Shown here: piece by piece, positions 12,402-58,672 of the stretch
Layout of the letters: the number at the start of each line of letters is the position of its first letter
Position numbering within the stretch: the first letter of the stretch is position 1
Source: an uncultured Nitrospirota bacterium
GTDB lineage: Bacteria; Nitrospinota; Nitrospinia; CAJXCL01
Reading direction: 5' to 3'
NCBI GenBank assembly: GCA_913051775.1
Contig: CAJXCL010000001.1
Span: 21,936-85,935, forward strand
Length of the DNA stretch: 64,000 nt
Translations under genes and position numbers: made by a program
The notes under the pieces: generated by a model
Seen by the model: the letters and a program-made list of their open reading frames with translations, nothing else
What the model was told of the DNA's origin: nothing
The model's database searches: none

Positions 12402-12510
12402 TGTAGTTTAATCTTCGTGACATTCATGAATTCAAGCCTTTGCAGGTACTCTTCACTGGGCGAATCTGCGAAGCCACGCTTAGCGGGGCGAAGCTAAATT
12501 CGTGGTTAAC

Positions 12511-13407
12511 TTATTTTGGCGTCCAGAGTCCCAAAGCCCTTTCTTTTTCGAGATTAATTTTTAATGTTGTCATGGCCTGTTCAGAGAGCTCTTTGTCAAT
12601 CCCGAAAACATCATGAATAGCTTCGTGAAAATTGTTTTTAATATTAAAATTTTGTTTCCCATCAAAAGTTGTTTTGCGCATAAAATTACCGCAGACAAAA
12701 AAAATCCCCTCATCTATTGTTTTGCTTAAATAAAGTCTATGCATGGAATTCCATTTAAAAGAAGCAAGCCAGTGCCGCAAAAATTCATCATCTGTCACAG
12801 GTTTATCCTGAAACCTGTAACGCCATTTAGTTTCAAAATTGTTAAAAGTAAACAAATTATAGCTTTGATTTTTTTGATCGAATTCAAGTTTTACTCCTGC
12901 AAATTTATTATTGATGAGTTGATTTTTTTCAGGATTGATTTCCATTGGTTTTTTCAGGAGATAGCCGGGATCCACCAGATATTTAACAGAACCCAAAACT
13001 ACGATCAGGCAGCAATGGATGTTTTTACCGGCACGCATCTCCGCCATGACAGGATAACAAATAAATTCGCAATAATTCAAAATACTTTGAATGAAAAAAG
13101 TTAAAGAAAAACAGGTGCCGCCTAATTTATAGGAAATATAGTCTTCTATAAGCTCCTCCGGTAGACGGATTTTATTTTCAGAGTCCCAATCATTGTCCAA
13201 TTTTATTATTTTGCTGAGATTTTCATAAGGAAGATTAGAAAAATGAAGTAGGAGTTCCTGCAAAAAAATCGAATCAGGCTTTTTTCGCTTAAGTTTAAAG
13301 AACTCAAGAAAACGTTTCACTCCCTCGTCGTGAGCAGTAAGGTCTAACAAAATTTTTTGGCTATCATCTATCATTAAAAAGTTGCAAAAATTTCTTTTTT
13401 TTCGCAT
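12511..13407 (-). CDS. Arylamine N-acetyltransferase (NAT)-family / transglutaminase-like Cys-protease-fold protein
   Basis: 298 aa. 'NLPYENL' and 'LGGTCFSL' (catalytic Cys), then 'HCCLIVV' (His) and 'DPGYLL' (Asp), matching the NAT Cys-His-Asp triad order. Confidence 0.55.
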
Positions 13408-17193: not shown

Positions 17194-18168
17194 ATGGTGT
17201 TTCCAATAACACGCCTGAGGCGGCTGAGAAAAAATGAAAATTTGAGAAGGATGATCAGGGAAACCAGGCTGTCGGTTGATAACCTCATCTATCCTCTGTT
17301 TGTAACATTTGGAAAAGGCGTTAAAGATGAAATTTCATCCATGCCAGGGCATTACAGGTTTTCTGTCGATAAAATAACGGAGGAGGTAAAGGAAGCTCAA
17401 AACCTTAAAATTCCGGCGATTATACTATTCGGTATCCCGGAGCATAAGGATGAAGTAGGTTCAGAAGCCTATAACAAATGCGGCGTTGTGCAGGGAGCAG
17501 TTAAAGCAATTAAATCTGCCACACCTGAAATAATTGTAATTACCGACGTCTGTATCGATGAATACACCTCTCATGGACATTGCGGACTTGTTAAGGGAGA
17601 TGAAATTCTAAATGACCCGACCCTTGAGCTTCTTTCAAAAATGGCTTTAACGCATGTGGAAGCAGGAGCGGATATGGTAGCGCCTTCCGATATGATGGAC
17701 GGACGTGTGGGTGCAATAAGAGAAACCCTTGATGATAATGGTTTTGATAATATACCGATAATGGCTTATTCCGCAAAATATGCTTCGGCGTTTTACGGTC
17801 CGTTCAGGGAAGCGGCTGATTCAGAGCCGAAGTTTGGAGACCGCAAGTCATACCAGATGGACCCTCCAAACAGCGAGGAAGCCATGAGAGAAGTTCTTCT
17901 TGATATTGAAGAAGGAGCGGATATCGTCATGGTAAAACCAGCCTTACCCTACCTTGATATAATCTACAGGGTAAAACATGAACTTGGTATGCCTGTTGCC
18001 GCATACAACGTGAGTGGAGAGTTTTCTTTAATAAAAGCCGCAGGCCAAAAAGGATGGGTTGATGAAGAACGGGTAATGATGGAAGCGCTCATCAGCATCA
18101 AACGCGCTGGAGCGGATATGATCCTCACCTACTTTGCCAAAGAAGCCGCTCGGGTTCTTACTGCTTAA
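17194..18168 (+). CDS. hemB: Porphobilinogen synthase (delta-aminolevulinate dehydratase)
   Basis: 324 aa. '[18 protein letters not shown]...LIYPLFV' and active-site Lys region '[10 protein letters not shown]'. Confidence 0.9.
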
Positions 18169-18704: not shown

Positions 18705-19895
18705 TCAAGTTGTGACTTCCTCTTTTTCTTTTTGAGTCTGGATAGGTTCGTATATGCAGTAGGGTTCTTCTTCGAGGTAATTTCCTTTTTCAAAATAGGC
18801 GCGGGCTCTGCACCCTTCACAAACCTTTTTATATTCGCAAATGCCGCATTTTCCCAACAGAAGGTCAGGATCTCGCAAATTCTTAAAAACTTCAGAGTTG
18901 TCCCATACGTCTTTAAAAGATTGTTTCAGGATATGCCCTGCTTCCACTGGCAGGTATCCGCACGGAAAGACCTCTCCTTTATGGGACACAAAGCAGATCG
19001 AGCTGCCAGCCAAACAGCCTTTGGTCATGGCTGCCATGCCGTGAGTCTTAGGTGTGATTTTTATCCCGTCCTCTTTTGCCCTCTGCCGCATGATTCTAAA
19101 ATAATGAGGAGCACAGGTAGCTTTTGTTTCAATTTTCTTTTCTAAGGAAACATCATAAAACCAGTTCAACACTTCCTCGTATTGCTCCGGTGGGAGCATC
19201 TGGTCATCGGCGATCTCAACACCACATCCAACAGGTACTAACATAAATATATGCAGGGCATGGACTCCAAGCTCTACGGCGTTTTTGTATAATTGCTTAA
19301 TTTCATGGACGTTGTGTTTGGCAATGGTGCTGTTTATCTGGACACTCATGCCGAGTTTCTGTAAATGCTTTAATCCTCTGAGCGCCATATCAAAAGAGCC
19401 GGGAAGTTTTCTGAATTCATCATGCGTTTTGCTGGTAGCCCCGTCAAAACTGATGGATACCCGTTGAATCCCTGAGTCGACTATTTTTTGTGCTATCGCT
19501 TCATCAATCGATGTCCCATTTGTAGCTAAGGCCAAAGTCAAACCTTTTTTTACCCCGTATTTGGCAATGTCGAAAATATCAGGACGAAAGAGCGGCTCGC
19601 CTCCGGATAAGACAAGGATTGGTTTTCCAACACTTGCGATATTATCAATAAGCTGGAAGGACTGTTCTGTAGTTAGATCATCCCTCATTAATTCTTTGCT
19701 GACGTCCAGTCGTCGGCAATGAACGCATTCCAAGTTACATCCCGCAGTTGTTTCCCAGAATATAAGCCTGAGCTGGTTTTTGACATTTTTCATAAAATGA
19801 GCCGCATGATGTGACCCATGCTTTTTATCATCTTTTATTTTATGAAACATTTCTTTTATTGTTGCATCTTTCGGGTGTCCTAAATTATGAGTCAT
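18705..19895 (-). CDS. Radical SAM / SPASM-domain protein of the NirJ/AhbC/AhbD (PqqE-like) type
   Basis: 396 aa. 'TTAGCNLECVHC' CxxxCxxC. C-terminal Cys cluster 'CGICEYKKVCEGC' typical of a SPASM auxiliary-cluster domain. His-rich N-terminus. Confidence 0.65.
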   Translation of the reverse strand: MTHNLGHPKDATIKEMFHKIKDDKKHGSHHAAHFMKNVKNQLRLIFWETTAGCNLECVHCRRLDVSKELMRDDLTTEQSFQLIDNIASVGKPILVLSGGEPLFRPDIFDIAKYGVKKGLTLALATNGTSIDEAIAQKIVDSGIQRVSISFDGATSKTHDEFRKLPGSFDMALRGLKHLQKLGMSVQINSTIAKHNVHEIKQLYKNAVELGVHALHIFMLVPVGCGVEIADDQMLPPEQYEEVLNWFYDVSLEKKIETKATCAPHYFRIMRQRAKEDGIKITPKTHGMAAMTKGCLAGSSICFVSHKGEVFPCGYLPVEAGHILKQSFKDVWDNSEVFKNLRDPDLLLGKCGICEYKKVCEGCRARAYFEKGNYLEEEPYCIYEPIQTQKEKEEVTT

Positions 19896-23596: not shown

Positions 23597-23642
23597 GAGC
23601 TTCCGCTCCAGTGAACAAACAAAAAAACTTGTTCAAAAAAAA
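23597..23642 (+). repeat. Family-B partial copy (3' hairpin plus A-rich tail only; B3)
   Basis: 'ggagcttccgctccagtgaacaaacaaaaaaacttgttcaaaaaaaag' matches the 3' end of B1. Located 70 nt upstream of prpD. Confidence 0.55.
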
Positions 23643-23709
23643 GTTTTCACAGTGTAATAGCAAAGACGATCTTCCTTCTTTAATACATGATTTTGAGGTT
23701 TTTTTTATC

Positions 23710-25083
23710 ATGAACAAAAAGCCGAAAAGTATTTCCAGAAATCTTGCCGAATATGCATCCTTCCTTGAATATAAAGATCTTTCTCCAGAAGTTATACATG
23801 AAATTAAAAGGCGTTTAATAGACAGCTTTGGATGCGCGCTTGGGGCTTTTGAAAGTGATCCGGCGAAAGTTGCAAGAGGAATAGGACAGAAAGCTAAAAC
23901 ATCTCAAGGCGCTACACTTTTGGGGACTTCTTTTAAAACGACATTTGACTTGGCCACTTTTGCTAATGGAACTCTTGTTCGTTATCTGGATTTTAATGAT
24001 ACCTATTTATCTAAAGAACCGGCTCATCCGAGTGATAATATATCAGCCGCCCTTGCTGTCGCGGAAGCGGAAAAGGCTAATGGTAAGGCTCTCATTACGT
24101 CTATAGCATTAGCGTATGAAATCCAGTGCAGGCTATGTGACGCCGCCTCTCTCAGGGCAAGGGGATGGGATCATGTGGGCTATGTCTCCATAGCAAGCGC
24201 GCTTCTTGCGTCAAAGCTTATGAATTTGGATCAGGACATAATAGAACATGCCATTGCCTTGAGTATTACGCCTAACACAACTTTACGACAGACCAGGGTA
24301 GGGGAGTTGTCCATGTGGAAAGGGTGTGCTGCTGCCAATGCAGCGAGAAACGGGGTCTTTGCTGCCTACCTTGCTAAGGAAGGAATGACGGGACCTTCAG
24401 AAATTTTTGAAGGTGAAAAAGGTTTTTTTAATCAGGTTACAGGTCCTTTTGATTTGGAAGTGGAAGCCTTCGGTAAAAGTGGTAAAAATTTTAAAATTCT
24501 TGATACTTATATAAAATACTATCCTTCTGAATATCATTCCCAGGCAGGAGTGGAGGCCGCCTTAAAACTTAGAGATAGAATTAAAGTCGATGATGCTGAC
24601 AAGATAAATATTGAAACTTATGACGCATGTGTTGACATTATTGCCGGAGAAAAGGAAAAGTGGTGCCCCCAAACCAGAGAGACAGCAGACCACAGTCTCC
24701 CTTATTGTGTGGCAGTTGCTCTTTTTGATGGAAAGGTCGGTCTGGAGCAGTTCTCAGAACAAAGGATTCAGGACACTGAACTCCAGAAATTTTTAAGTAA
24801 AATTAAGGTTAAACGAAATGAAGAACATAACAAACAATACCCTGAATCCTTCCCCTGCTTTATAGAGATCAAGAGCAAAGCAGGAGAGTTTTTTTCTGAA
24901 ACCGTTGATTATCCAAAAGGCCATCCTAAAAATCCCCTGAGTGACAGGGAAGTGGAAGAAAAGTTTATATATTTAAACGATGGTCGTATAAAAAGTGTGA
25001 AAGTAAAGGATATAATGAATCGCATCTGGGACTTGGAAAATCTGAAAGATTTAAGTAATTTTATAAGTCTTTTGAAAATATAA
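23710..25083 (+). CDS. prpD: MmgE/PrpD family protein, probable 2-methylcitrate dehydratase
   Basis: 458 aa from the internal ATG at 23710; the track ORF starts at 23611 inside the B3 repeat. Size and operon context with prpB/prpC support the call. Confidence 0.75.
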   Translation: MNKKPKSISRNLAEYASFLEYKDLSPEVIHEIKRRLIDSFGCALGAFESDPAKVARGIGQKAKTSQGATLLGTSFKTTFDLATFANGTLVRYLDFNDTYLSKEPAHPSDNISAALAVAEAEKANGKALITSIALAYEIQCRLCDAASLRARGWDHVGYVSIASALLASKLMNLDQDIIEHAIALSITPNTTLRQTRVGELSMWKGCAAANAARNGVFAAYLAKEGMTGPSEIFEGEKGFFNQVTGPFDLEVEAFGKSGKNFKILDTYIKYYPSEYHSQAGVEAALKLRDRIKVDDADKINIETYDACVDIIAGEKEKWCPQTRETADHSLPYCVAVALFDGKVGLEQFSEQRIQDTELQKFLSKIKVKRNEEHNKQYPESFPCFIEIKSKAGEFFSETVDYPKGHPKNPLSDREVEEKFIYLNDGRIKSVKVKDIMNRIWDLENLKDLSNFISLLKI

Positions 25084-25219
25084 TGAAGAGGATGTAGGAT
25101 GAATAGTAAAGGGTCGGGTGTCAGGGATCGGGGTTCAGATAAAAAAAGCTGACCCATGATACCCAACACCTGATTACTACTTGAAAATTCTCATTAATCT
25201 TTGTCAATAGTTAAGCATT

Positions 25220-26083
25220 ATGGGAAAAGTAATTAAGAAATTGATGGGTAAAGGTATCGTTGTAATGCCGGGGGCGTTTAACGGTATCTCAGCAAAGCTG
25301 GTTGAAAAGGCCGGCTTTAAAGCCCTTTATATTTCAGGAGCAGGCCTCGTCAATGGCGTCATGGCTATGCCAGATGTAGGACTCCTCACCATGACCGAAG
25401 TTCAGACACAGGCGGGTTATATTATCAATGCCGTTAACATACCCTGCATTGTGGATGGAGATACAGGCTTCGGAGAGACTGCAAATGTAATGAGAATGGT
25501 GAAAGGACTCGAAGGTGTTGGAGTGGCCGGAGTCCATATTGAAGATCAGGAACTGCCCAAGAAATGCGGACATCTTTCCGGTAAAAGGCTTGTGTCTCCT
25601 CATACAATGGCGGAGAAGATTGCTTCCGCTGTGGAAGCAAGGAAAGACCCGGACTTTATTATTATCGCGAGAACAGACGCAAGAGGGGTAGAAGATATTA
25701 AAAAAGCGATAGAAAGGGCAAACATTTATTTGGAAGCCGGAGCAGATGTTATTTTTCCCGAGGCCTTGCAATCAAAGGAAGAATTCATTACTTTTAAAAA
25801 AGAGGTCAATGCCCCGCTTTTAGCTAATATGACAGAATTCGGTAAGACACCGTTCATAACTGTAAGTGAGTTTGAAGATATGGGTTACAGCATTGTCATC
25901 TTCCCTCTAACTGGCTTCAGAGTGATGCTTAAAGCCGTTCAAGAAGCTCTGGAAAAGCTGAAAGCCGAAGGAACGCAGAAAGACTTGATTGAAAAGATGC
26001 TTACCAGGAAAGGCTTGTATGAACTTATCGATTATAATGATTATGAGGGGATTGATAAAAAAATAAGTAATAAATTCAAATGA
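25220..26083 (+). CDS. prpB: 2-Methylisocitrate lyase (isocitrate lyase/PEP mutase family)
   Basis: 287 aa. Family signature 'KKCGH' ('PKKCGHLSGK'). N-terminal 'MPGAFNGISAKLVEKAGFKALYISGAG'. Confidence 0.8.
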   Translation: MGKVIKKLMGKGIVVMPGAFNGISAKLVEKAGFKALYISGAGLVNGVMAMPDVGLLTMTEVQTQAGYIINAVNIPCIVDGDTGFGETANVMRMVKGLEGVGVAGVHIEDQELPKKCGHLSGKRLVSPHTMAEKIASAVEARKDPDFIIIARTDARGVEDIKKAIERANIYLEAGADVIFPEALQSKEEFITFKKEVNAPLLANMTEFGKTPFITVSEFEDMGYSIVIFPLTGFRVMLKAVQEALEKLKAEGTQKDLIEKMLTRKGLYELIDYNDYEGIDKKISNKFK

Positions 26084-26102
26084 TATTAATTTTTTTAAAG
26101 AT

Positions 26103-26127
26103 TTTCGACAGGACTAACAGGATTTAG
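26103..26127 (+). repeat. Short dispersed motif 'tttcgacaggaYtaacaggattWa' (copy 2), 20 nt after the prpB stop
   Basis: 22 of 25 nt identical to 1233-1257. Confidence 0.5.
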
Positions 26128-26258
26128 TAGATTTTGGATTGTGGATTTTTAATGCAAAACCGAAACCCAAAATCCTATATTCGAAATTATTGAATCCAGG
26201 CAATCCTGTGCATCTTGCAAAACTGAGCTTAGCTCATGTCAAAAAGAAAGTAACTATA

Positions 26259-27389
26259 ATGAGCGCTGAACAAAAAATTGCTGCCGGGCTTGCGGGAATA
26301 ATTACCGGAAGGAGTTCAATTTGTGAGGTAGATGAAGAAAATTGTGAGCTCTATTACAGGGGATATTCCATCTTAGACCTTGCGGAACACTCTAACTTTG
26401 AGGAAGTCGCGTACCTTTTGCTGAAAGGTGAGCTGCCCGAAAAGAAGAATTTAGGAGAGTTTCAAAATAAGTTGTCGGAGGAAAGAGAAATTCCCCATAA
26501 AGTTGATGAGGTTCTAAAAGGGCTTTCAGCGAAAACCGACCCTATGGATGTTTTAAAGATAGCTGTTGGGATTCTTCATACCGTAGACCCCGATGCATCT
26601 TCCAATGAAGAAGAAGCCAATATAAGGAAGGCTATAAGACTAATTGCGAAAATCCCGACAATTATCACAGACAATTTTCACTTCTCTCATGGAAACGAAC
26701 CTGTTAAACCCAATCCTCATCTTTCCCTTGCCGAAAACTTTCTTTATATGTTGAAGGGAAAGGAACCGGAAGCTTTTGAATCGAGCGCCCTTGAAAAATC
26801 ACTAATCCTTTACGCGGAGCATGAACTGAATGCTTCCACATTTGCCGCGCGGGTAGTTGTCTCTACTCTTTCGGACATGCACTCTGGTATCATTGCCGCT
26901 ATTGGAGCGTTAAAGGGCCCTTTGCACGGTGGCGCTAATGAAAGAGCTATGGAAATGCTCCTTGAGATAGAGGAACCTGAAAAAGCAGAATCTTGGATTA
27001 AGGACGCCCTGTTACAAAAAAAGCGGATCATGGGATTTGGTCACAGGGTTTATAAAAAGATGGACCCGAGAAATCCGGTTATAAAAAAGATATCAAAAGA
27101 ATTGGGCGCAAGGAATGAAAACAGCAAGTGGTTTGAAATTTCAGAAATAATAGAAAAGATTATTGATCGGGAAAAAGGACTCCATCCAAATCTGGACTTC
27201 TACTCCTCTTCTGCCTATTATCTCTTAGGGATTCCGATTCCTCTTTATACACCTATTTTTGTTGCCTCAAGAGTTACGGGCTGGGTAGCTCATGTGATGG
27301 AACAGTACTGCGATAACAGGCTCATAAGACCCAGGGCGGAATATACAGGCGAGAAAAAAAGGGAGTACGTACCGATTGAAGACAGATGA
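26259..27389 (+). CDS. prpC: Citrate synthase family, probable 2-methylcitrate synthase
   Basis: 'GFGHRVYKKMDPR' citrate synthase signature. Start moved to the internal ATG at 26259 (377 aa); the track start at 26139 adds a non-conserved 40-aa leader. Confidence 0.8.
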   Translation: MSAEQKIAAGLAGIITGRSSICEVDEENCELYYRGYSILDLAEHSNFEEVAYLLLKGELPEKKNLGEFQNKLSEEREIPHKVDEVLKGLSAKTDPMDVLKIAVGILHTVDPDASSNEEEANIRKAIRLIAKIPTIITDNFHFSHGNEPVKPNPHLSLAENFLYMLKGKEPEAFESSALEKSLILYAEHELNASTFAARVVVSTLSDMHSGIIAAIGALKGPLHGGANERAMEMLLEIEEPEKAESWIKDALLQKKRIMGFGHRVYKKMDPRNPVIKKISKELGARNENSKWFEISEIIEKIIDREKGLHPNLDFYSSSAYYLLGIPIPLYTPIFVASRVTGWVAHVMEQYCDNRLIRPRAEYTGEKKREYVPIEDR

Positions 27390-29306: not shown

Positions 29307-29738
29307 CTATTTCTTTTTAGTTCCCGCTAAAAAAAATTCGAGCTGTTTAGCTTTGTCTGGGTTTATCTTTTTCAGATCTATCAGGATTTCTTTTGCCTTG
29401 CTGATTTCTCCTGTTTCAACATAAGCTATTCCAATATTTCTGTAAAAATCAGAGTCAAGTGGATTTAGAGAGATGGCTTTTTTATATTTTATAATTGCTT
29501 CTTTTACTTTATCCGATGCAAATAGCATGTTTGCCAGATTATAATGATAGTCAGCGATTTTAGGATTAATTTTTATAGCCTTTCTAAATTCCTTAATGGC
29601 CATTTCATATTTACCTTCTTCCGAATACATGTTTCCCTTATCAAAATGATCTAAAGCATCATCCGCAAAACATGGAGTAATAGCAGGAAACATAAAAACC
29701 ATGAGCGCAATTAAAAAAAACAAAGATCGAACAGTCAC
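29307..29738 (-). CDS. TPR-repeat protein with signal peptide
   Basis: 143 aa. N-terminal hydrophobic segment. Three TPR-like repeats (e.g. 'YEMAIKEFRKAIKINP', 'EAIIKYKKAISLNP'). Confidence 0.6.
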   Translation of the reverse strand: MTVRSLFFLIALMVFMFPAITPCFADDALDHFDKGNMYSEEGKYEMAIKEFRKAIKINPKIADYHYNLANMLFASDKVKEAIIKYKKAISLNPLDSDFYRNIGIAYVETGEISKAKEILIDLKKINPDKAKQLEFFLAGTKKK

Positions 29739-29817
29739 AAATAATTCCTAATAGAAAAGTTTTATAAGTAAAGTTTTTTTAATACTGTAAATATTATGGA
29801 TTTTTTTTTCGCTGTTA

Positions 29818-31395
29818 TCAACTATTTGATATACTTCTGTTTTTCTTCCAGCGTTGTTTCCTCTTTCCCCTATAAAAATTGAATCCACCATAAACAATAG
29901 TGCAGAAAAGGATAGCAATAGCAAAGATATCTCCGTAAAGGGTATAGAATGTTCTATAATTCTTTTCCGGAAAGATATTTCCGATAATTTTATCCCGCAC
30001 AAATATATCTGTTTGCGAGATGATTTTTCCGCGGCTGTCTATTATCCCTGTAATGCCTGTGTTTGCTGCCCGGATAGTTGGTCTTCGGTTTTCCACAGCC
30101 CTGAATACCACCATTGAAATATGCTGATAAGATGCGGCGCTTTTTCCAAACCAGGCGTCATTGGTTATATTCACTAAAAATTCGGCTCCTGCTTTAACGA
30201 AACGCCTGACCAGGTCAGGAAATATTACTTCAAAACAAATGAGCACACTGAGTTTTGCATCTGGTATGGAAAAAACCGTATATTCAGTTCCGCTCCCAAA
30301 ATTACCAATACCTGTTACCATTTTATCCACAAAAAATAAAAGCTTTTTTAAAGGTACGTACTCGCCAAACGGAACGAGGTGTATTTTGTCATACCGGCCA
30401 AGCACCTTTTTTTCAGGTGAAATCAAATAGGCGCTGTTAAAAAGCGTTATATCCTTTCTTTGTTCTGTATAACTCGGACTCCCGAATAGAATATTGCTAT
30501 TACTTTCTTTTCCTAATTGCAAAAGTTTTTTCTGATTAACTATATCGCTTGAGAAATTAAAGGGAGTCGCGGTCTCAGGCCAGACAATTAAGTTCGGGTC
30601 GCTTCCCGCCGCTTTTAGCGTCATGTCCTGATAGGTTTTATAAACCATTTTTTGATAGACTGGATCCCATTTATGATTTTGTTCAATATTTCCTTGAAGC
30701 AAGGCCACTTTTAAAGACTTCTTTCCTGTTCGACTGCCGAAAGAGAAATTTTTCCAAAAACCATACCCTAATGTTACAAAGATTAAAAGAACAGCTACCC
30801 CAACATAATTTCCAAATATAGACAGCTCCATTTTTTCAGGCTGAAAGGAATAAAAATAATCGAGAATCAAAAAAAATATGACATTTATAAAAACAATCAG
30901 AAAGGATAAGCCATAAATACCTGTGATATCCACAATCTGAATAACTGAAAGAAAATTAAACTGTGAATAAGCAAGGCTTGCCCATGGGAAGCCTGTGAGA
31001 AAATGCGCCCGCACATATTCCAGCGAAACCCATATGAAAGAAGCTGCAAGCCATTTATGAACTTTTGGGTGGCTAAAACAGGAAAGAAAAAAACAGAAAA
31101 GGCCGGTATATGCCCCAAGGTACAAAGCAAGCACAATCAATAAAAAAATACTTACTGAAAGAGGGAGTCTTCCGTAATTTACCATGGTATTGATAATCCA
31201 TGACAACGTACCCAGGTAAAAAAGAATCCCCTGAGCCCATCCCAACCAGAACGATTGGAGCGGAGTTTTATTGTGAATAGCGATAAAAAGAGGGATCATT
31301 CCGAACCAGGCGAAAGGCCAGAAGTTATAATTGGGAAACGCAAGGATCAATAAGAGGGAAGAAAATCCAGCTGAAATAAAATCAGTTATTTTCAT
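29818..31395 (-). CDS. lnt: Apolipoprotein N-acyltransferase
   Basis: 525 aa. N-terminal polytopic domain plus CN-hydrolase domain: E of 'LIVWPETA', K of 'KIHLVPFGEYVP', and catalytic Cys in 'ICFEVIFPD'. Confidence 0.8.
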   Translation of the reverse strand: MKITDFISAGFSSLLLILAFPNYNFWPFAWFGMIPLFIAIHNKTPLQSFWLGWAQGILFYLGTLSWIINTMVNYGRLPLSVSIFLLIVLALYLGAYTGLFCFFLSCFSHPKVHKWLAASFIWVSLEYVRAHFLTGFPWASLAYSQFNFLSVIQIVDITGIYGLSFLIVFINVIFFLILDYFYSFQPEKMELSIFGNYVGVAVLLIFVTLGYGFWKNFSFGSRTGKKSLKVALLQGNIEQNHKWDPVYQKMVYKTYQDMTLKAAGSDPNLIVWPETATPFNFSSDIVNQKKLLQLGKESNSNILFGSPSYTEQRKDITLFNSAYLISPEKKVLGRYDKIHLVPFGEYVPLKKLLFFVDKMVTGIGNFGSGTEYTVFSIPDAKLSVLICFEVIFPDLVRRFVKAGAEFLVNITNDAWFGKSAASYQHISMVVFRAVENRRPTIRAANTGITGIIDSRGKIISQTDIFVRDKIIGNIFPEKNYRTFYTLYGDIFAIAILFCTIVYGGFNFYRGKRKQRWKKNRSISNS

Positions 31396-32184
31396 TTATT
31401 GTTTTACAGCAATAATGTCGAATGAATTTTCACTTTTGATAATTCTTGTGGCTATAAAAGATGGGATTCCATACCGGCGGGCGCAATATTTATATTTGTT
31501 TACAACTTTAAGACCCTTTGAATTTAAAATGTCGCATACATTTTTAATGTCTATTCCTCCAAAACGACGCTGAAAATCGGAAAATCCATATTTTTCACCT
31601 GGCATTGATATTCCCTGAAGAGTCATTGATAATCGATAAAGTGTTTCATCCGTTTTCTTCAGAAGTTTATGAAAAAAAGAACGTAACCCGTTGTCAACCG
31701 GCTGTTTTATTGGCTCAAAAAAAATGAGAAGTATACCACCCTTTAGTAAAGCAGAGCAGGCCGCTTTCAATACAGTTTCATAATCAAAAAGATGGTGTAA
31801 AAAAGCTGACATGGAGATCAATGAAAAAACTTCTTTATTATGATTGAGATAATCAGAAGCGCTGTTGTTTATCAGTGTAGCTTTTGTTTTAAGTTTGTCA
31901 GGGATTTTTTCTTCTAAAGCCGTAATCATTTCTTGTGAAAGATCGATTCCTGTTATTTCAAATCCCCTCTGCAAAAACTCCAAAAGAAGGTATCCTGTCC
32001 CACACCCAATGTCCAGAATTTTGCAATGATTCTCAGGCAGCAAGTCAACTGCTTTATTAATGTTTTTGGTCAGGTGAGCATATTGGAAGAAGTTCGTTTG
32101 TTCCGGATGCCGGTGAAGATATTCCTTGCTTTCCAGGGCATGGATCAAAATATTTTCCTTTATGACTTTTTCTGCAAGTTGCAT
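31396..32184 (-). CDS. Class I SAM-dependent methyltransferase
   Basis: 262 aa. Motif I 'ILDIGCGTGYLLLEF'. Its stop abuts the lnt start (31395/31396), implying co-transcription. Confidence 0.7.
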   Translation of the reverse strand: MQLAEKVIKENILIHALESKEYLHRHPEQTNFFQYAHLTKNINKAVDLLPENHCKILDIGCGTGYLLLEFLQRGFEITGIDLSQEMITALEEKIPDKLKTKATLINNSASDYLNHNKEVFSLISMSAFLHHLFDYETVLKAACSALLKGGILLIFFEPIKQPVDNGLRSFFHKLLKKTDETLYRLSMTLQGISMPGEKYGFSDFQRRFGGIDIKNVCDILNSKGLKVVNKYKYCARRYGIPSFIATRIIKSENSFDIIAVKQ

Positions 32185-32307
32185 TTTATATTTTTCGATC
32201 TATGTAATCTTTTCAGCCCAACGGGCTATCCTCTACAATCCTTTCGGACTTTTGGTTCTAATTGTTTTAGCTTTTTTAGATTTTAATGTATAAACCTGTA
32301 ATGATTA

Positions 32308-33231
32308 TTAAATAATAAACCTCTTCGCTACTTTTTGACTTTCGTATTCATTGCAATTTTTGCATATTTGCGGAAAATCTTTATCCATATGTCTTTTTCG
32401 GAGCCTTCTCATAGCTAGTCCGTTCCAGATGGAATCCACTGTTTCATTCAGGACGTTCCCGATTTGGAGCTCTCCTTCATAATCCGCGCAGCAGGGAACA
32501 ACTTTTCCGTCCCACAAGACCACCACCTTTCCGTAATCTTTCCCAAAAAGTTCTGGACAGATATCTGTCCTTTGTAATGCAAACTTGTAAAATTGTGTTT
32601 TTTTAGCACAATTTTTTTTAGCAGATTGGACGGTAGCCCCTTTGGTAGTGGCCTCTTGGCTATGCTGTGAACGGATTAATTTAGGTTGAAAACGAACATG
32701 GTCTGCTATGGATTTCCACTTATCATAAAAGGAGTCCATATCTTTTTCTGTTTGTTCTTCAACAACCATTACAATCCCTATTTTAAGGGGGCTGTTTTTC
32801 TCGTTTCTACCTTTTATCAGATTCAAAATATTATTTTCGATTATTTGAAAATCAATACCCCGAATTTTTTGGTATGTGTCCGGGTTTCCATCCACAGAAA
32901 TTCTCAATACACTTAAAGGACTGTTAAGAATTCTGTGGATAGTGTTGTCATCGAGCAATGTTCCGTTGGTATTAAAAACCGTATAACGAATTCCTTTATT
33001 ATGAGCATATTTGATCATATTAAATAAATCTTTGTTCTGCGTTGGTTCACCCCAGTTATGAAGGCAGAGATGCTTCAGCGATTTTCCGCTACCGATTGTT
33101 TTTTGAAAAAGTTCAAAAGACATGAATCCTTTTTTTCTTTTCATTTCATTATTAGTCGGACATATGCGGCAATTCAAATTACATACATTCGTCGTCTCAA
33201 TAGTTAATGATGTGAGTTTATTGATTTTCAT
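32308..33231 (-). CDS. Radical SAM enzyme with C-terminal SPASM-like Cys cluster
   Basis: 307 aa. 'ETTNVCNLNCRIC' CxxxCxxC. C-terminal 'PCCADYEGELQIGNV...CKNCNEY'. Confidence 0.7.
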   Translation of the reverse strand: MKINKLTSLTIETTNVCNLNCRICPTNNEMKRKKGFMSFELFQKTIGSGKSLKHLCLHNWGEPTQNKDLFNMIKYAHNKGIRYTVFNTNGTLLDDNTIHRILNSPLSVLRISVDGNPDTYQKIRGIDFQIIENNILNLIKGRNEKNSPLKIGIVMVVEEQTEKDMDSFYDKWKSIADHVRFQPKLIRSQHSQEATTKGATVQSAKKNCAKKTQFYKFALQRTDICPELFGKDYGKVVVLWDGKVVPCCADYEGELQIGNVLNETVDSIWNGLAMRRLRKRHMDKDFPQICKNCNEYESQKVAKRFII

Positions 33232-34193
33232 TATTTGAGGATATCGTCAATTACAAAATCAGGTTGGTCTTCGATTATCTCTTCAATTACATAATCAGGC
33301 CTGTCCTGTACCTGGGAATAAATTCTACCGATATATTCTCCAAGAATTCCAATGGAGAGAAGTTGCACTCCTGCAAAAAGAGAAAAAAGAGCTGTCAGCA
33401 CGGTAAGACCATCATACATTACACCTCTAACATAACGTTGAAAAAGTAAAAAGATCATCAATAAAAATCCAAGAGACGCGCCAAAGAAACCGAGATAAGT
33501 AACTATTCTTAAAGGAAACCTCGAAAATCCTGTTATAAGATCCATTGCTAATTGAAACAGCTTCCCAATGCTATATTTTGTTTCTCCATGCAGCCTTTTC
33601 GAATGATCCACTTCCACATGGGCGCTGGAAACACCCATCCAGCTTACCAATGCCGAGAGAAATTTTGATTTATCTTTACATTGATTGATTTTTTCGATGA
33701 CACTTCTTCTCATCACGCGGAAGGAACTTATATAAAGCCTGATATTCTTGCCCATTAACTTCGATATCAAGAAAGCTAAAATAGAAGAACATATTTTTCG
33801 CGGGAAAAAGTCCTGCCTATTTTTTCGAATTCCGCTGACTATATCGTAGCCTTCATTAAGTTTCAGGATTAGCTTGGGTATCTCTTCTGGTGGGTTTTGG
33901 AGATCGGCGTCTAACTGGACAATAATTTTTCCTTTACAATGTTTGAATCCGGCAAGGACTGCTGACTGCTGCCCAAAGTTTCTGGTAAATTTTAAAATAC
34001 TGATATTTTTATCTTTATGTCTCAAATCCTTTAGCATGTTGAGGGAATTATCCGTACTGCCGTCATCAATAAAGATTAATTCATATCGGGGCGAAATTGG
34101 AGTTATTGAAGCTAAGAGCCTGTCATATAGTTCACTAATATTTTCCGCTTCGTTATATACTGGGATAACAACTGAAATATCTACCTGGTTCAT
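33231..34193 (-). CDS. GT2 polyprenyl-phosphate glycosyltransferase (DPM1/ArnC/GtrB-like) with C-terminal TM helices
   Basis: 320 aa. 'VVIPVYNEAENI...IFIDDGSTDNS' GT-A DxD region. Two C-terminal TM helices. 1-nt overlap with the downstream radical SAM gene. Confidence 0.8.
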   Translation of the reverse strand: MNQVDISVVIPVYNEAENISELYDRLLASITPISPRYELIFIDDGSTDNSLNMLKDLRHKDKNISILKFTRNFGQQSAVLAGFKHCKGKIIVQLDADLQNPPEEIPKLILKLNEGYDIVSGIRKNRQDFFPRKICSSILAFLISKLMGKNIRLYISSFRVMRRSVIEKINQCKDKSKFLSALVSWMGVSSAHVEVDHSKRLHGETKYSIGKLFQLAMDLITGFSRFPLRIVTYLGFFGASLGFLLMIFLLFQRYVRGVMYDGLTVLTALFSLFAGVQLLSIGILGEYIGRIYSQVQDRPDYVIEEIIEDQPDFVIDDILK

Positions 34194-34300
34194 TGCACAA
34201 TGTTAACATAATATACTATTACCCCGTAAAAATTTTTTTTTATTTTGTTATACTGCCTAATGTTTTTTTGAATAGCTTTTAATGGTAAAATGCAGAAACT

Positions 34301-35881
34301 ATGTGTATTGATGTTCATAAAATCAGTGAATTAAGAACCAGACCGACCTCTGAATTTCGTTTTACTCTAATAGCGCTCTATAACTTTAATCATTTAGGGG
34401 TTCGCGCCCTCCATTCTCTTTTAAAGTCAAAAGGCGTTCATGTGGATCTTATTTTTTTTAAAAATATGTTGTTTAACGACGCTAAAAGGCCAACCCTGGA
34501 AGAAACTAACCAGTTAACAGAATTAATTAAAGAAAAAAATCCTGACCTTGTCGGGATTAGTGTGAGCTGTTCAACTTTTTATAACATTGCGAAAGATATT
34601 ACTGATAGCGTTAAGCAAAAGATATCATCCCCTGTTATCTGGGGAGGAGCACACCCGACGATAGATCCCGATCAGTGCATTAATCACTCGGATATGGTTT
34701 TTATTGGAGAGGGAGAATTTGGTTTGCTTGACCTCATAACTAAAATGTCACAAAACCTGGATTTCTCAGATATTCCAGGCCTTTGGATAAAAAAGAATGG
34801 TGGACACGTAATTAAAAATGCTCCGACTCCATTAAGCAACTTTCTTAACCTGATTCCGCCGAATGACTACGAAGATGATAAAAAATATTATATTGAAAAA
34901 GGAAACTTGAAAAATGGGGATCCTTACTCAAAAAATAATGAACTCTACACAATTCTGACCGGCAGGGGTTGTCCTTTTGATTGTACATACTGTATTAATC
35001 ACCTTTTTAAGGATATTTACACGAGCAGGGGATTTCCTGTCAGGCGAAGGAGTGTGTCACATGTCATAAACGAGCTTGGTCAGGCAAAAAAAATGTTTCC
35101 TAACCTGAAGCGGGTGACCATTTTTGATGATGTCTTTGTATTGGATAAAAAATGGGCGAAAGAATTTTGTGATGAATATAAAGAAAAAATCAATTTGCCC
35201 TTCTCGTGCCTTTTTCATCCTTCCACGATTAAAGAAGATATTGTGTCTATTTTGAAACAGGGGGGGCTGGACTATATAGATATAGGTATAGAAAGCGGTT
35301 CAGAAAGAATTAGACGTGAAATATTTGGACGAAAAGATTCAAACCGGGTTATTAAAAACGCGATGGATATCATGCGTAGATATAATGTCAGACCTTATCT
35401 CGACTTCATCCTAGATAACCCTTTTGAAACCGTTGAAGATAAACGGCAGACTCTTGATCTGCTCTTAAGTTTCCCCAGGCCTTTTATGTTTTATTTTTAT
35501 TCGTTAATTTATTTTCCTAAAACAAAAATGACTCAGCTTGCCCTTGAAAAAAAGATTATTACTGAAGGTGACGTCGAAGATAAAAAAGGAAAAGTTTTCG
35601 ATCAATTTCAGGTTACATTCAGTTACAAAAGAAAAAAAGAAGAATTGTTCTGGATATGCCTTTTTTCTTTGTCAGGGAAAAGTTTTATTCCAAAATTTTT
35701 GATCAGGAGTTTGAGTAAAATTCGCCTGTTATCAGCTAAACCGACTTTGCTCGTAATGCTAACAACCATTTCCAACTATATCAGGGTTATCGGTATAGGC
35801 CTCGAGCGACTCTTTTCAGGTGAGTTGACTTATACGATGTTTAAGCGGTATTTTAAAGCGGCTTTTACATTGAATAAATAG
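34301..35881 (+). CDS. B12-binding-domain radical SAM enzyme (class B radical SAM)
   Basis: 526 aa. N-terminal cobalamin-binding-like domain ('DLVGISVSCST...VIWGGAHPT'). Radical SAM 'GRGCPFDCTYC'. Divergently transcribed from the GT2/rSAM/MT/lnt operon. Confidence 0.7.
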   Translation: MCIDVHKISELRTRPTSEFRFTLIALYNFNHLGVRALHSLLKSKGVHVDLIFFKNMLFNDAKRPTLEETNQLTELIKEKNPDLVGISVSCSTFYNIAKDITDSVKQKISSPVIWGGAHPTIDPDQCINHSDMVFIGEGEFGLLDLITKMSQNLDFSDIPGLWIKKNGGHVIKNAPTPLSNFLNLIPPNDYEDDKKYYIEKGNLKNGDPYSKNNELYTILTGRGCPFDCTYCINHLFKDIYTSRGFPVRRRSVSHVINELGQAKKMFPNLKRVTIFDDVFVLDKKWAKEFCDEYKEKINLPFSCLFHPSTIKEDIVSILKQGGLDYIDIGIESGSERIRREIFGRKDSNRVIKNAMDIMRRYNVRPYLDFILDNPFETVEDKRQTLDLLLSFPRPFMFYFYSLIYFPKTKMTQLALEKKIITEGDVEDKKGKVFDQFQVTFSYKRKKEELFWICLFSLSGKSFIPKFLIRSLSKIRLLSAKPTLLVMLTTISNYIRVIGIGLERLFSGELTYTMFKRYFKAAFTLNK

Positions 35882-35969
35882 TTAGTCACTGGTCATTTGA
35901 CATCAGTCAATAATGATTTCCCAATGACAAGTGATTAATGACGAACGACTAATATAAGGAAATAACAAT

Positions 35970-36302
35970 ATGACAATAGAAAGATACTGGGTTCTGTTTC
36001 CCATTCTGTTTTTTCTTGTTCTCGGATGTCTTATCGCGGCCGTCATTCGGACATTCAGGCAAAATGAAAAAGGCATTGAGAAGTGGACTGTTGTCCCGGC
36101 ACTGGCACTGATTATTGTTACAGCTTTTTCGGGTTGGCTTTTTCCGAGCTACCACAGGATTATTTCGTTTGTCGCGGAGGGTCTTATTTTTTACAACGCC
36201 ATAATTTTCTGGAAAAAGAAAGAGAGATTTACATCATGGTTAAACATAGCAGCGCTATTTTTTATCTTTTGTGATTTTTCTCTGCATAAGATTTTAAAAT
36301 AA
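35970..36302 (+). CDS. Hypothetical small membrane protein (3-4 TM)
   Basis: 110 aa, mostly hydrophobic. Downstream of the B12-rSAM gene. Confidence 0.4.
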   Translation: MTIERYWVLFPILFFLVLGCLIAAVIRTFRQNEKGIEKWTVVPALALIIVTAFSGWLFPSYHRIISFVAEGLIFYNAIIFWKKKERFTSWLNIAALFFIFCDFSLHKILK

Positions 36303-36309
36303 AGAGGAG

Positions 36310-36618
36310 GTGATGATTATGAATTTAAAGAAATTTTTTATTATTTTCTTCATACTTTTTTTAGCGGCGTGCGGAAAGACAGGAAAAAATTTTAACGAAG
36401 GGTACGTTGAATATATTAAAAATGGCGAAACAACAATGCATGAGATAGTACAAGAAATAGGGGAACCTAACAGAAAAGGGACGGCTGACGGGCGTGAATG
36501 GTGGATCTATGAGTATAACACCTATAAATTAGGAAAAACTCTTTCCAAAGATCTGCAAATTGTATTCGATGATAAGGGAGTAGTAAAGGCAATCACTTTT
36601 TCCAGTAATTTCCCCTGA
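36310..36618 (+). CDS. Hypothetical lipoprotein
   Basis: 102 aa. Signal peptide ending in lipobox 'LAAC' (…FILFLAACGK). Confidence 0.45.
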   Translation: MMIMNLKKFFIIFFILFLAACGKTGKNFNEGYVEYIKNGETTMHEIVQEIGEPNRKGTADGREWWIYEYNTYKLGKTLSKDLQIVFDDKGVVKAITFSSNFP

Positions 36619-47869: not shown

Positions 47870-48115
47870 TTAATGTTTTTTATCACAATACTAACTTTAA
47901 AGGTTGTTCAATTTTCAAGGGGTATGGCCATCTTTTTTCTCCAAAATTAAATCCAGTTATTTCCATAAATCCTGCCAAAAAAATACCTGCTTTATCCCTC
48001 AGAAAACAAATATATTTTTTTCTATTTTTTTGTTGACAAGGTATTGAAGATATGGAATTATGTGTCTTAAAATGTATTAAAGTGTTTTATAGTGTCATAA
48101 AAATAGTAAATTTCT

Positions 48116-48568
48116 ATGTTTACTGGCAATTACACATTGAATCTGGATTCCAAGGGCAGGATGAATATCCCTGCTAAATATAAGGAAGTTCTGGAAACGA
48201 AATATAACGATGTACTGTTTATAACCACTAAATCCAACTGTCTTACGGCTTATCCGCAGTCTGTGTGGGATGTCCTTGTAAACCAGGTAAGACAGCTTTC
48301 TTCTTTAAAAAAGGAAGTGAGTGAATTTAAACGGCTTTTTTTAGGCTCGGCACAAGAAGTTACTATTAAACACGGCCGTATTCTTATTCCGGCTAACCTC
48401 AGAAGCCATGCCGGCATTGCTAAAGCAGCAGTTCTTGTTGGAGTGGATGACACATTTGAGATATGGAGCAAGGATAGCTGGATTGAGTTTTTCCAGGATA
48501 GACAGGAAAGTTTGGATGACTTAGGGGATAAGCTTGCTGATCTTGGTGACAAACTTCCCAACATTTAA
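48116..48568 (+). CDS. mraZ: Transcriptional regulator MraZ
   Basis: 150 aa. Duplicated MraZ half-domains. First gene of the dcw cluster. Confidence 0.85.
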   Translation: MFTGNYTLNLDSKGRMNIPAKYKEVLETKYNDVLFITTKSNCLTAYPQSVWDVLVNQVRQLSSLKKEVSEFKRLFLGSAQEVTIKHGRILIPANLRSHAGIAKAAVLVGVDDTFEIWSKDSWIEFFQDRQESLDDLGDKLADLGDKLPNI

Positions 48569-48574
48569 CAGGGT

Positions 48575-49519
48575 GTGTTAATGAAGAAAATGCACCTGGC
48601 TGTGTTAACAGGAGAGATTTTGGAAATGCTCCAGGTCAAAAAACACGGTATCTATCTGGATGGTACCCTTGGCGATGGCAGCCATGCTGAGCAAATCCTT
48701 TCCCGAATGGATCCCGAGGGAATATTAGTTGCTTTTGAACAGGATAAAGATTCTATTTCTTTCGCTCAAAAGCGGCTCCAGCCTTTTAAATCCCAAACGA
48801 AAATATTTCACGACAATTTTAAGAACGCAAGGAAAGTTCTTATTAAAGAAAAGATCGGACTTTTGAATGGAATTTTATTAGACCTGGGGTTCTCGTCACG
48901 ACAACTGGAAAACCCAGAAAGGGGATTCAGCTTTGCTTCAGATGCTTTTTTGGATATGAGAATGGACCAAAGAACCAAAACTACTGCTTTTGACCTAATA
49001 AATAATTCTTCGGAAAATGAGCTAATAACTATTTTTAAGGAGTTTGGCGAAGAAAGATGGGCAAAGAGGATCGCCAGAGCCATTATAAGTACAAGGAAAA
49101 TACAACCCATACGAACCACAGGTGAGTTGAGCAAGTTAATTCTTTCCACGGTTCCGGCAAAATCAAAAAAATACAAAATTCATCCGGCGACAAGGGTATT
49201 TCAAGCATTGAGAATTGCTGTTAACAATGAATTGGAAGCTTTATCTACTATTTTAGATGATGGTATTGAGTGCCTTAAACCGTCCGGCAGGTTTTGCGTT
49301 ATTTCCTTTCATTCACTTGAAGACCGCCTGGTAAAGACGAGGTTTCGTCAACTTGAGAAGGGTTGTATCTGTCCGCCAGATATACCGCAATGTGTGTGCG
49401 GCAGGAAAGGCGTGTTAAAGGTAATAACGAAAAAGCCGATTGTGCCGACGGAAGATGAAGTAAAGAAGAACCCGAGAGCAAGAAGCGCAAAACTGAGAGT
49501 AGCGGAGAAAATAGGTTGA
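48575..49519 (+). CDS. rsmH: 16S rRNA (cytosine1402-N4)-methyltransferase
   Basis: 314 aa. 'DGTLGDGSHA', 'LLDLGFSSRQL', 'SFHSLEDRLVK' RsmH motifs. Confidence 0.9.
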   Translation: MLMKKMHLAVLTGEILEMLQVKKHGIYLDGTLGDGSHAEQILSRMDPEGILVAFEQDKDSISFAQKRLQPFKSQTKIFHDNFKNARKVLIKEKIGLLNGILLDLGFSSRQLENPERGFSFASDAFLDMRMDQRTKTTAFDLINNSSENELITIFKEFGEERWAKRIARAIISTRKIQPIRTTGELSKLILSTVPAKSKKYKIHPATRVFQALRIAVNNELEALSTILDDGIECLKPSGRFCVISFHSLEDRLVKTRFRQLEKGCICPPDIPQCVCGRKGVLKVITKKPIVPTEDEVKKNPRARSAKLRVAEKIG

Positions 49520-49607
49520 CAGTTGTAAGAGTTAGGAGATCGGCAGCAATTGAAAAAGCTATTTTTACCATGATCCTTGAGAACTGAATCCTGAAAACTG
49601 ACTTCAT

Positions 49608-49952
49608 ATGTTTATTAAATTTTATAAAAAATTAAAGGGGAAAAGATATAACCCGGGGCAGAGAAAGAAAATCCGCAAGGTGCAAGCTTATGCGAGCTTT
49701 TTGATAGCATTTAGTTTAATTGGGTCAGGCATTTTTTTTTATAGTTGGCCGAGAGTGAGACTTGTAACCATGACCTATGACTATAACAAGCTGCGGGCAA
49801 AGGAAAATGAGCTGATCCATTTAAACAGGATGCTGAAACTGGAACTGGCGTCCATTAAGTCTTTAAAAAAAGTTGAAAAGATAGCAATAGAAAAGATGGG
49901 AATGATTGAGCCGAAAGACGAAGACATTATTTTTATAAAGGTGAAAAATTGA
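49608..49952 (+). CDS. ftsL: Cell division protein FtsL
   Basis: 114 aa. Single TM plus coiled-coil. Positioned between rsmH and ftsI. 4-nt overlap with ftsI. Confidence 0.6.
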   Translation: MFIKFYKKLKGKRYNPGQRKKIRKVQAYASFLIAFSLIGSGIFFYSWPRVRLVTMTYDYNKLRAKENELIHLNRMLKLELASIKSLKKVEKIAIEKMGMIEPKDEDIIFIKVKN

Positions 49953-51850: not shown

Positions 51851-51863
51851 TGACAGATGACTA

Positions 51864-53351: not shown

Positions 53352-53572
53352 CACCCCCCTTAATCCCCGCGAGAAGGGATTTGACAGCTTCAATCCCTTC
53401 AGGTAAGGAGGTAAGGGGGGTGTCATTATCTATAAGAAAGAAATGTAAAACAACGATGGATAGGCTTATTTACGCATACTCGTTGTAAAGTTTATAAATG
53501 AGAATGTTACGAGTTGTTAATTGCAAACTGAATACTTTAAAAAATATGAAACCTGAGATCTAAAATTATAAA

Positions 53573-54670: not shown

Positions 54671-54673
54671 TGA

Positions 54674-56032: not shown

Positions 56033-56091
56033 TGTTTAAACGAAATCTCCATTTTCCTATTATTTCGAGCGGAGCGAGAAAATTTAGGTGA

Positions 56092-56175
56092 GTGAAAGTG
56101 TTTAGCGAGCGAATTTAAAAAAAATTATACTCTACACTGAAAATTCTCAGTAGCTTGCTACGGGAAGCTTCAATG
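56092..56175. repeat. Family-A repeat, long form (A5), inserted between murD and ftsW inside the dcw cluster
   Basis: 'gtgaaagtgtttagcgagcgaatttaaaaaaaattatactctacactgaaaattctcagtagcttgctacgggaagcttcaatg'. The track-predicted ftsW start (56155) lies inside it. Confidence 0.7.
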
Positions 56176-56196
56176 TGGCTAAAATTTAATAATAGG

Positions 56197-57357: not shown

Positions 57358-57380
57358 AAAAACATCAAAAAATAAACTTT

Positions 57381-58646: not shown

Positions 58647-58672
58647 GTTTTTGTGGTGAGTCTATATCTAAA

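Follow-up and report, generated by a model that had tools for sequence, protein, structure and literature searches.

The question raised by this locus is why the gene for apolipoprotein N-acyltransferase (Lnt) should lie directly behind genes for a glycosyltransferase, a radical S-adenosylmethionine (SAM) enzyme and a methyltransferase. The locus was found in a stretch of 64,000 nucleotides, hereafter called the window, from a deep-ocean Nitrospinota metagenome-assembled genome (MAG; contig CAJXCL010000001.1, positions 21,936 to 85,935). On the minus strand of the window, a family 2 glycosyltransferase (GT2, 33231-34193) is followed by a small SPASM-domain radical SAM enzyme (32308-33231), a class I SAM-dependent methyltransferase (MT, 31396-32184) and lnt (29818-31395). 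An earlier interpretation, made from the DNA letters alone (the sequence-only reading), had given Lnt the organizing role in this group. Our comparison shows that the phylum-wide conserved unit is the triad of GT2, SPASM radical SAM enzyme and MT, and not Lnt. We consider it reasonably probable, though well short of certain, that the triad represents an Arn/Gtr-like, lipid-carrier-based pathway that tailors a sugar for the envelope, with Lnt only as a lineage-specific neighbor.

For the comparison, a profile of the SPASM family was built, which led to 80 species-level genome loci where the window proteins were placed by tblastn and the flanking genes were clustered. The conservation counts are based on the 61 Nitrospinota loci from other species, in which the SPASM protein is 42-55% identical to that of the window. 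The SPASM gene is directly preceded by GT2 in 60/60 Nitrospinota loci and directly followed by MT in 53/55, with order and strand unchanged. Since this adjacency is kept at only 43-55% identity, it exceeds chance. In contrast, none of the 50 Nitrospinota loci outside the window's clade has lnt at a distance of up to 10 kb to either side of the SPASM gene. In Nitrospinaceae, lnt occurs in unrelated contexts, and no GT2 or radical SAM gene was called on the fetched contigs. The conservation of the neighborhood, which the sequence-only reading had itself set beforehand as a check, was thus confirmed for GT2-SPASM-MT and not for the linkage to Lnt. What stands of that reading is the idea of a module in which a lipid-carrier glycosyltransferase is combined with a radical SAM enzyme and a methyltransferase; this module is conserved and apparently undescribed.

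The proteins of the triad are 50-55% (GT2), 43-47% (SPASM) and 40-50% (MT) identical to those of the window, similar to the 48-52% of the housekeeping protein Lnt. Because the triad has diverged from the window much as Lnt has, the pattern fits vertical inheritance of the triad with rearrangement of its surroundings. The sequence-only reading had also counted three plus-strand genes of the window among the partners: a class B radical SAM enzyme with a B12-binding domain (34301-35881), TM110 (35970-36302), a membrane protein of 110 aa for which a hydropathy scan gave 3-4 transmembrane (TM) segments, and Lpp102 (36310-36618), a lipoprotein of 102 aa. These did not turn out to be conserved partners, as locus L086 is without the B12 gene, and Lpp102 is a BamE-like lipoprotein of the backbone described below. 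The linkage of Lnt, TM110 and Lpp102, as well as the window's own B12 gene, is confined to the window's clade. A B12 radical SAM gene is found upstream of the triad and co-directional with it in 21 of the 54 loci with room upstream, and this is a paralogue differing from the gene in the window.

Within the window's clade, the arrangement varies considerably. Locus L005 (Lnt 90% identical) is arranged as the window. In L006 (Lnt 83%), a VapBC/PIN pair lies between the B12 gene and GT2, and 2.3 kb with opposite-strand FGE-sulfatase-like open reading frames (ORFs) lies between MT and lnt, while in L007 a tyrosine recombinase (integrase) gene at 12131-13096 lies directly 3' of MT. L086 and L087 (Lnt 73%) have TM110 opposite GT2-SPASM-MT-lnt and a tight MT/lnt junction, and are without the B12 gene. 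In L096 (Lnt 67%) the cassette is absent, and AKR, HAD and Lpp102 genes are found opposite lnt across 537 bp. The linkage of Lnt to the triad is lineage-specific and repeatedly broken. Lnt can therefore not be upheld as the organizing member, given the missing linkage in the other Nitrospinota loci, the absence of the cassette in L096 and the broken MT-lnt junction in L006 and L007.

Judging from the gene orders within this clade, the older arrangement is a backbone of bamE-like lipoprotein, HAD and AKR genes divergent from lnt. TM110, B12, GT2, SPASM and MT occupy the divergent spacer between lnt and the bamE-like gene, either via insertion or with a later loss in L096. Lpp102 is part of this chromosomal backbone and not of the cassette, because in L096 it stays with HAD/AKR opposite lnt without the cassette. 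The abutment of lnt and MT is a lineage-specific arrangement and probably a local accident of gene order, and the MT-lnt junction is a hot spot for rearrangement. The FGE-sulfatase-like ORFs found at this junction in L006 (6755-7434, opposite strand) are split and probably represent a pseudogene. A further observation concerns the VapBC/PIN pairs immediately upstream of GT2 in L006 (2931-3571) and L088 (1708-2301), two distant Nitrospinota lineages. With PIN proteins of only 21% identity, the idea that the pairs mark a shared mobile element was rejected, and they appear to have been inserted independently at this position.

In the window itself, all eight ORFs of the sequence-only reading were found where it had placed them, and every domain call was upheld by Pfam and NCBIfam. 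The eighth ORF encodes a small TPR protein (29307-29738, minus strand; TPR_1/2/11 domains) located 3' of lnt, with one N-terminal hydrophobic segment in the hydropathy scan, consistent with secretion. This gene follows lnt in the window, L005 and L006, and is not found there in L086 or L096. The minus-strand genes had been described as packed with junctions of 0-1 nt, which is true of two out of four. GT2 and SPASM share 1 nt (TAATG), and the ATG of lnt comes directly after the MT stop codon (TAAATG), whereas gaps of 123 nt and 79 nt separate SPASM from MT and lnt from the TPR gene, respectively. The AT-rich divergent spacer between GT2 and the B12 gene, earlier given as about 110 bp, measures 107 nt (34194-34300). 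No terminator-like site was found on the coding strand of the 123-nt SPASM-MT gap. As this gap contains neither such a site nor a same-strand small ORF, GT2-SPASM-MT-lnt are likely co-transcribed in this genome.

GT2 matches PF00535 at 127 bits (residues 7-169) and aligns over its full length with two solved enzymes, ArnC (9hwj, 248 bits, residues 6-308 to ArnC 10-315) and GtrB (5ekp, sll0501, 223 bits, residues 4-306 to GtrB 26-329). The translation (VQLDADLQNPPE) contains DADLQN, a DXD motif of the DADLQx form and the same as in ArnC; the motif reads DADLQN in ArnC and DADLQD in GtrB (PMC12690121). Additionally, the hydropathy scan identified two C-terminal hydrophobic helices at 233-251 and 258-286. 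The protein stays under the ArnC equivalog cut-off (NF007986, 281 bits vs 529), and there are no arnA, arnB, arnD or arnT genes near GT2. Collectively, GT2 is predicted to be a polyprenyl-phosphate glycosyltransferase of the ArnC/GtrB type that is not assignable to ArnC proper.

The SPASM enzyme, at the center of the triad, has 277-307 aa and a radical SAM core that begins at about residue 10. An identical protein is encoded on contigs of the Nitrospinota MAG GCA_036013005.1 and in other metagenome assemblies (JGI, ENA). The best solved relative of the family profile is BtrN (E 2.8e-24), with the next match ten orders of magnitude weaker, and both the core and the twitch motif PC...CKNCN (BtrN 196-264) are included in the alignment. 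An AlphaFold2 model (pLDDT 87.9) has BtrN as the top fold, followed by DesII, with BlsE at rank 8; RiPP (ribosomally synthesized and post-translationally modified peptide) maturases and anSME follow at similar E-values. BtrN, DesII and BlsE are enzymes acting on sugars. In the family alignment, the CX3CX2C motif (C17-x3-C21-x2-C24) is at least 90% conserved and C225, C247/248, C290 and C293 are invariant, and the cysteine pattern of a twitch domain with a single auxiliary cluster is present. All NCBIfam matches, including those to RiPP maturases and Tes, were far under the cut-offs. From profile and model, the protein is best described as a predicted BtrN-like twitch radical SAM enzyme.

The likeness to BtrN, a 2-deoxy-scyllo-inosamine dehydrogenase of butirosin biosynthesis considered here together with DesII, BlsE and SpeY, has clear limits. 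The sizes are comparable (277-307 aa vs about 250-270), the CX3CX2C motif and the C-terminal twitch cysteine spacing are shared, and BtrN is the best match in both sequence and fold. However, the identity is only about 14% in the structural alignment, the cassette has no aminoglycoside gene context, and the SPASM enzyme carries an extra cysteine pair (C247/C248) as well as a 27-aa insertion in the window's clade. This basic, Lys/Gln/Thr-rich insertion of about 27 aa (residues 190-216, window 32584-32664, minus strand; pLDDT <50) lies between the core and the twitch domain and is found only in the window's clade, the Nitrospinaceae orthologues (277-288 aa) being without it. The family comprises 7,016 cluster representatives at E <= 1e-30. 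The third protein of the triad, MT (Methyltransf_11/12/23/25 domains), has no close characterized relative, with a best PDB match of 34 bits.

The genes around the triad in other genomes show which chemistry it keeps company with. In Nitrospinaceae, the triad forms the 3' end of an operon, and the genes after it are convergent and unrelated. Upstream are an RmlB-like nucleoside diphosphate (NDP)-hexose 4,6-dehydratase (339 bits, slightly below the cut-off of 365), WbqC, a second SPASM radical SAM enzyme (372-419 aa) and sometimes a B12 radical SAM enzyme. The second SPASM gene of the window (18705-19895, minus strand) was considered as the missing large partner of this operon and rejected, as it is an AhbD heme b synthase. 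In four loci of other Nitrospinota MAGs (L018, L033, L036 and L040), the operon is headed by a gene for a PMT_2 membrane transferase of the GT-C class (ArnT/PMT-like), followed by three paralogous genes of the SDR family for NDP-sugar dehydratases/epimerases/reductases and a WbcJ/FdtA-like cupin gene, and it ends with B12 radical SAM, GT2, SPASM and MT. This operon is convergent with a gene for a Wzx-like flippase fused to lipopolysaccharide (LPS) heptosyltransferase II. The fusion (854 aa, L036 11709-14273, minus strand, also in L018 and L033) is an unusual domain combination in its own right.

The surroundings of more distant SPASM homologues are similar. One belongs to a cluster of the O-antigen type that also has rmlBACD, Wzm/Wzt, WbqC and DegT, and another was paired with a methyltransferase. 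The 94 genes flanking 18 non-Nitrospinota homologues include 11 B12 radical SAM enzymes, 12 class I methyltransferases and 5 GT2, in addition to 4 GT1/4, 2 PMT/PMT_2 and 2 DUF2079 proteins. By gene content, the company of the triad appears to be glycan chemistry built around a lipid carrier.

The proposed pathway would start with NDP-sugar enzymes encoded elsewhere in the genome, whose product would be a nucleotide sugar, with a 6-deoxy or 4-keto hexose derivative as the probable sugar. On the inner side of the membrane, GT2 would move this sugar onto undecaprenyl phosphate. The radical SAM enzyme would take a hydrogen from the sugar, and by analogy with BtrN the most likely outcome is the oxidation of a secondary alcohol to a ketone, while MT would add a methyl group. 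The lipid-linked sugar would then be flipped across the membrane, where a GT-C enzyme of the ArnT/PMT type, whose gene would also lie outside the window in this genome, would hand it to an envelope acceptor, most likely lipid A or the core of LPS, following the logic of Arn and Gtr.

The comparison with these two systems shows both the basis of the proposal and where the cassette departs from it. Like ArnC, GT2 has DADLQN, two C-terminal TM helices and a full-length match (248 bits); a sugar would be tailored around the lipid-carrier step in both, and some Nitrospinota versions of the operon include a PMT_2/ArnT-like GT-C gene, as in Arn. The differences are that GT2 is below the ArnC cut-off (281 vs 529 bits), that no ArnA, ArnB or ArnD homologues occur in the cassette, which would tailor by a twitch radical SAM enzyme and MT, and that the window is without a GT-C gene or a recognizable flippase. 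The Gtr system (GtrA/GtrB/GtrC, O-antigen glucosylation) shares the full-length match of GT2 to GtrB and the logic of a small cassette with a product for use on the periplasmic side. However, the cassette has neither a GtrA-family flippase, as TM110 does not match GtrA, nor an adjacent GtrC, and its extra radical SAM and MT genes would imply a modified sugar instead of plain glucose.

Several points weigh against the proposed pathway. The 64 kb of the window contain no GT-C gene, recognizable flippase or NDP-sugar genes, and the pathway is thus incomplete as seen here. The tailoring could take place on the NDP-sugar or on the lipid-linked sugar, and the reactions assigned to the members of the cassette are predictions. 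Furthermore, PMT_2 enzymes can glycosylate proteins as well as lipid A, and the acceptor may be a lipoprotein. Finally, the TAAATG junction of MT and lnt is shared by the window and its 65-73% identical relative L086, which could reflect selection for co-expression beyond mere inheritance.

The last two points lead back to Lnt. It scores 361 bits against TIGR00546 (cut-off 133) and matches both LNT_N (PF20154) and CN_hydrolase (PF00795). In alignment with E. coli Lnt (5xhq), the motifs WPE, RYDKIHLVPFGE (RYxKxHLVPFGE) and ICFE (ICxE) are kept, and within these we take the catalytic Glu-Lys-Cys residues to lie. By sequence, the protein is a bona fide Lnt. The statement of the sequence-only reading that Lnt normally stands alone or with housekeeping genes overlooks the actinobacterial operon and fusion of lnt and ppm1 (PMC3460810). 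In C. glutamicum, the ppm operon encodes Lnt/Ppm2 and Ppm1, which are fused in M. tuberculosis Rv2051c, and both steps belong to one pathway (PMC3460810). The window resembles this system in that lnt is linked to, and probably co-transcribed with, a polyprenyl-phosphate glycosyltransferase gene. It differs in that the linkage is limited to a single small clade of Nitrospinota, that two genes separate lnt and GT2, and that GT2 is of the ArnC/GtrB type with its own membrane anchor and not of the DPM1 type that depends on the Lnt domain.

A coupling as in Corynebacterineae would mean that a GT-C enzyme attaches the lipid-linked, radical-SAM-tailored sugar to lipoproteins, and that lnt is kept in place as N-acylation and glycosylation cooperate. 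The precedent of the C. glutamicum operon and Rv2051c (PMC3460810) speaks for this, as do the MT stop abutting the lnt start in the window, the tight junction in L086, the PMT_2 GT-C gene in some Nitrospinota operon versions and the lipoprotein gene nearby. However, the 0/50 count outside the clade shows that the linkage of lnt and GT2 is not kept across the lineage, the junction is broken in L006 and L007, and lnt in L096 is without the cassette; GT2 has its own TM helices and does not need an Lnt anchor, and the nearby lipoprotein is a BamE-like backbone gene. We therefore regard such a coupling as unlikely, although it has a real precedent, and slightly more doubtful is its specific form, in which the MT-lnt abutment is a real coupling and lipoproteins are both N-acylated by Lnt and glycosylated from undecaprenyl phosphate with a radical-SAM-oxidized, methylated sugar. 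If true, the corynebacterial Ppm1/Lnt/Pmt pathway would have a counterpart in diderms, with new sugar chemistry. Lnt is most likely a housekeeping neighbor by local rearrangement in one small lineage, an arrangement that does not itself point to a role in the pathway.

The other two readings of the cassette, both raised before, concern a lipid and a peptide as substrate. The tailoring of a membrane lipid would have the radical SAM enzymes and MT modify a core or hopanoid-like lipid, to which GT2 adds a head-group sugar to give a glycolipid. This comes close to sugar tailoring on a lipid carrier, and in that respect the earlier suggestion was near the mark; the named lipid families are unmatched. 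The SPASM enzyme shows weak matches to Tes and GDGT-MAS (41 bits NCBIfam, 57 bits PDB), the B12 protein to HpnJ (95 bits), a ladderane family (92 bits) and HpnR (43 bits), and the B12 protein has a hydrophobic C-terminal segment in the hydropathy scan. However, with family cut-offs of 360-650 bits (Tes 450, HpnJ 578, HpnR 650, ladderane 360), all of these scores fall far short, and GrsA/B and HpnP gave no listed match. Against this reading are also the full polyprenyl-phosphate glycosyltransferase signature of GT2 and the conserved operon partners, which are NDP-sugar dehydratases/epimerases, WbqC, cupin and GT-C and include no lipid-synthesis genes, and we hold it to be very unlikely. The maturation of a small ribosomal peptide by the SPASM enzyme, the B12 radical SAM enzyme and MT would be in line with both kinds of enzyme being common RiPP maturases and with weak NCBIfam matches to PapB, DynA, ApyD and rSAM_ocin_1 (37-79 bits). 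No precursor is apparent, as the 123-nt gap between SPASM and MT has no same-strand ORF of at least 20 aa, the genes at the other junction of the triad overlap by 1 nt, and no recurring gene family was found between the triad genes in about 60 loci, where only ORFs of at least 70 aa were called. The SPASM enzyme opens with the radical SAM core, leaving no space for an N-terminal peptide-recognition domain in 277-307 aa; its scores are far under the RiPP cut-offs of 282-750 bits (PapB 40/340, DynA 37/450, WgkB 36/650, ApyD 79/750), and BtrN, a sugar enzyme, is its best relative. With no protease or exporter gene, and with a polyprenyl-phosphate glycosyltransferase as the conserved partner, the peptide reading is highly improbable. 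The Arn/Gtr-like tailoring of an envelope sugar thus remains the reading that we prefer.

The B12 protein of the window matches PF02310 (56 bits) and PF04055 (70 bits), and GCPFDCTYC (CX3CX2C) is invariant in the family alignment. By its domains it is a putative class B radical SAM enzyme with predicted cobalamin binding, and all its NCBIfam matches are far below the cut-offs. The closest solved structure, 9ccb (QCMT, a peptide glutamine C-methyltransferase), matches at 40 bits and is uninformative. Relatives of at least 70% identity were found only in the window's clade, and beyond it the identity is at most 47%, the named homologues being from Desantisbacteria, Aminicenantes, Omnitrophota and SAR202. 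The B12 radical SAM enzyme linked to the cluster in Nitrospinaceae is only 24% identical and has different best family matches, and the two were therefore rejected as orthologues. The B12 gene of the window is probably a lineage-specific accessory that was horizontally acquired.

Among the matches listed in a metagenome scan with the B12 alignment, most are remote paralogues of 25-34% identity, with full-length homologues only in L097, L098 and L108, and they tell little about the B12 family of the window itself. The best of these (L097, 39%) lies amid GT2, other B12 radical SAM and PMT_2 GT-C genes, a context that weakly fits a role of the B12 enzyme in the same kind of chemistry. On the L097 contig (1-10023), two GT2 genes and one PMT_2 GT-C gene are interspersed among five B12 radical SAM genes, of which one is frameshifted, and the contig looks like a multi-radical-SAM glycan-tailoring cluster. 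TM110 had no Pfam or NCBIfam match above threshold, and jackhmmer found it only in the window species (L001-L003), L006, L007 and L086. It was also considered as a flippase of the GtrA or ArnE/F type, an idea that neither Pfam nor NCBIfam supported, even at E <= 0.1. Lpp102 has an LAAC lipobox in its translation and a marginal Pfam match to BamE (24.0 bits vs the cut-off of 23.2).

Other parts of the window are worth recording. A complete division and cell wall (dcw) cluster at about 48100-63200 (plus strand; mraZ, rsmH, ftsI, murE, mraY, murD, ftsW, murG, murC, murB, ftsQ, ftsA) shows that the window is core chromosome. The AhbD-type heme b synthase gene mentioned above (TIGR04545 496 bits vs the cut-off of 500) adjoins hemB (ALAD, 17194-18168, plus strand), which suggests a siroheme-dependent heme route in this MAG. 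A methylcitrate-cycle trio was found at 23611-27389 (plus strand), consisting of a PrpD-like gene, a methylisocitrate lyase-like gene (PEP_mutase/ICL) and a gene of the citrate synthase family, and the window also contains genes for a 2-oxoacid dehydrogenase complex. At 10618-12401 (minus strand), the gene for a CDP-alcohol phosphatidyltransferase of unusual length (422 aa) shares 4 nt with a DUF4416 gene and may encode an unusual phospholipid head-group enzyme. The search for Rfam families, including riboswitches, gave none in the window beyond one tRNA-Gln. The ORF at 53573-54670 had no exact-protein record, probably due to a differing start-codon call, and was annotated by Pfam.

Searches of the literature on Nitrospina radical SAM enzymes and glycosyltransferases, and on cobalamin radical SAM enzymes and undecaprenyl phosphate, found no description of the cassette, and the combination of WbqC and radical SAM gave one unrelated paper. 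An operon combining a polyprenyl-phosphate glycosyltransferase, a twitch radical SAM enzyme and a methyltransferase thus appears to be undescribed.

Nitrospinota are the ocean's main nitrite oxidizers, and to our knowledge their envelope chemistry is almost unstudied. The phylum-wide cassette points to an unusual envelope sugar, made by oxygen-independent radical tailoring and carried on LPS or surface proteins. The clade of the BtrN-like enzyme is very large and uncharacterized, and in the sampled loci it is repeatedly paired with B12 radical SAM enzymes, methyltransferases and glycosyltransferases. One solved member of this clade would annotate many glycan clusters.

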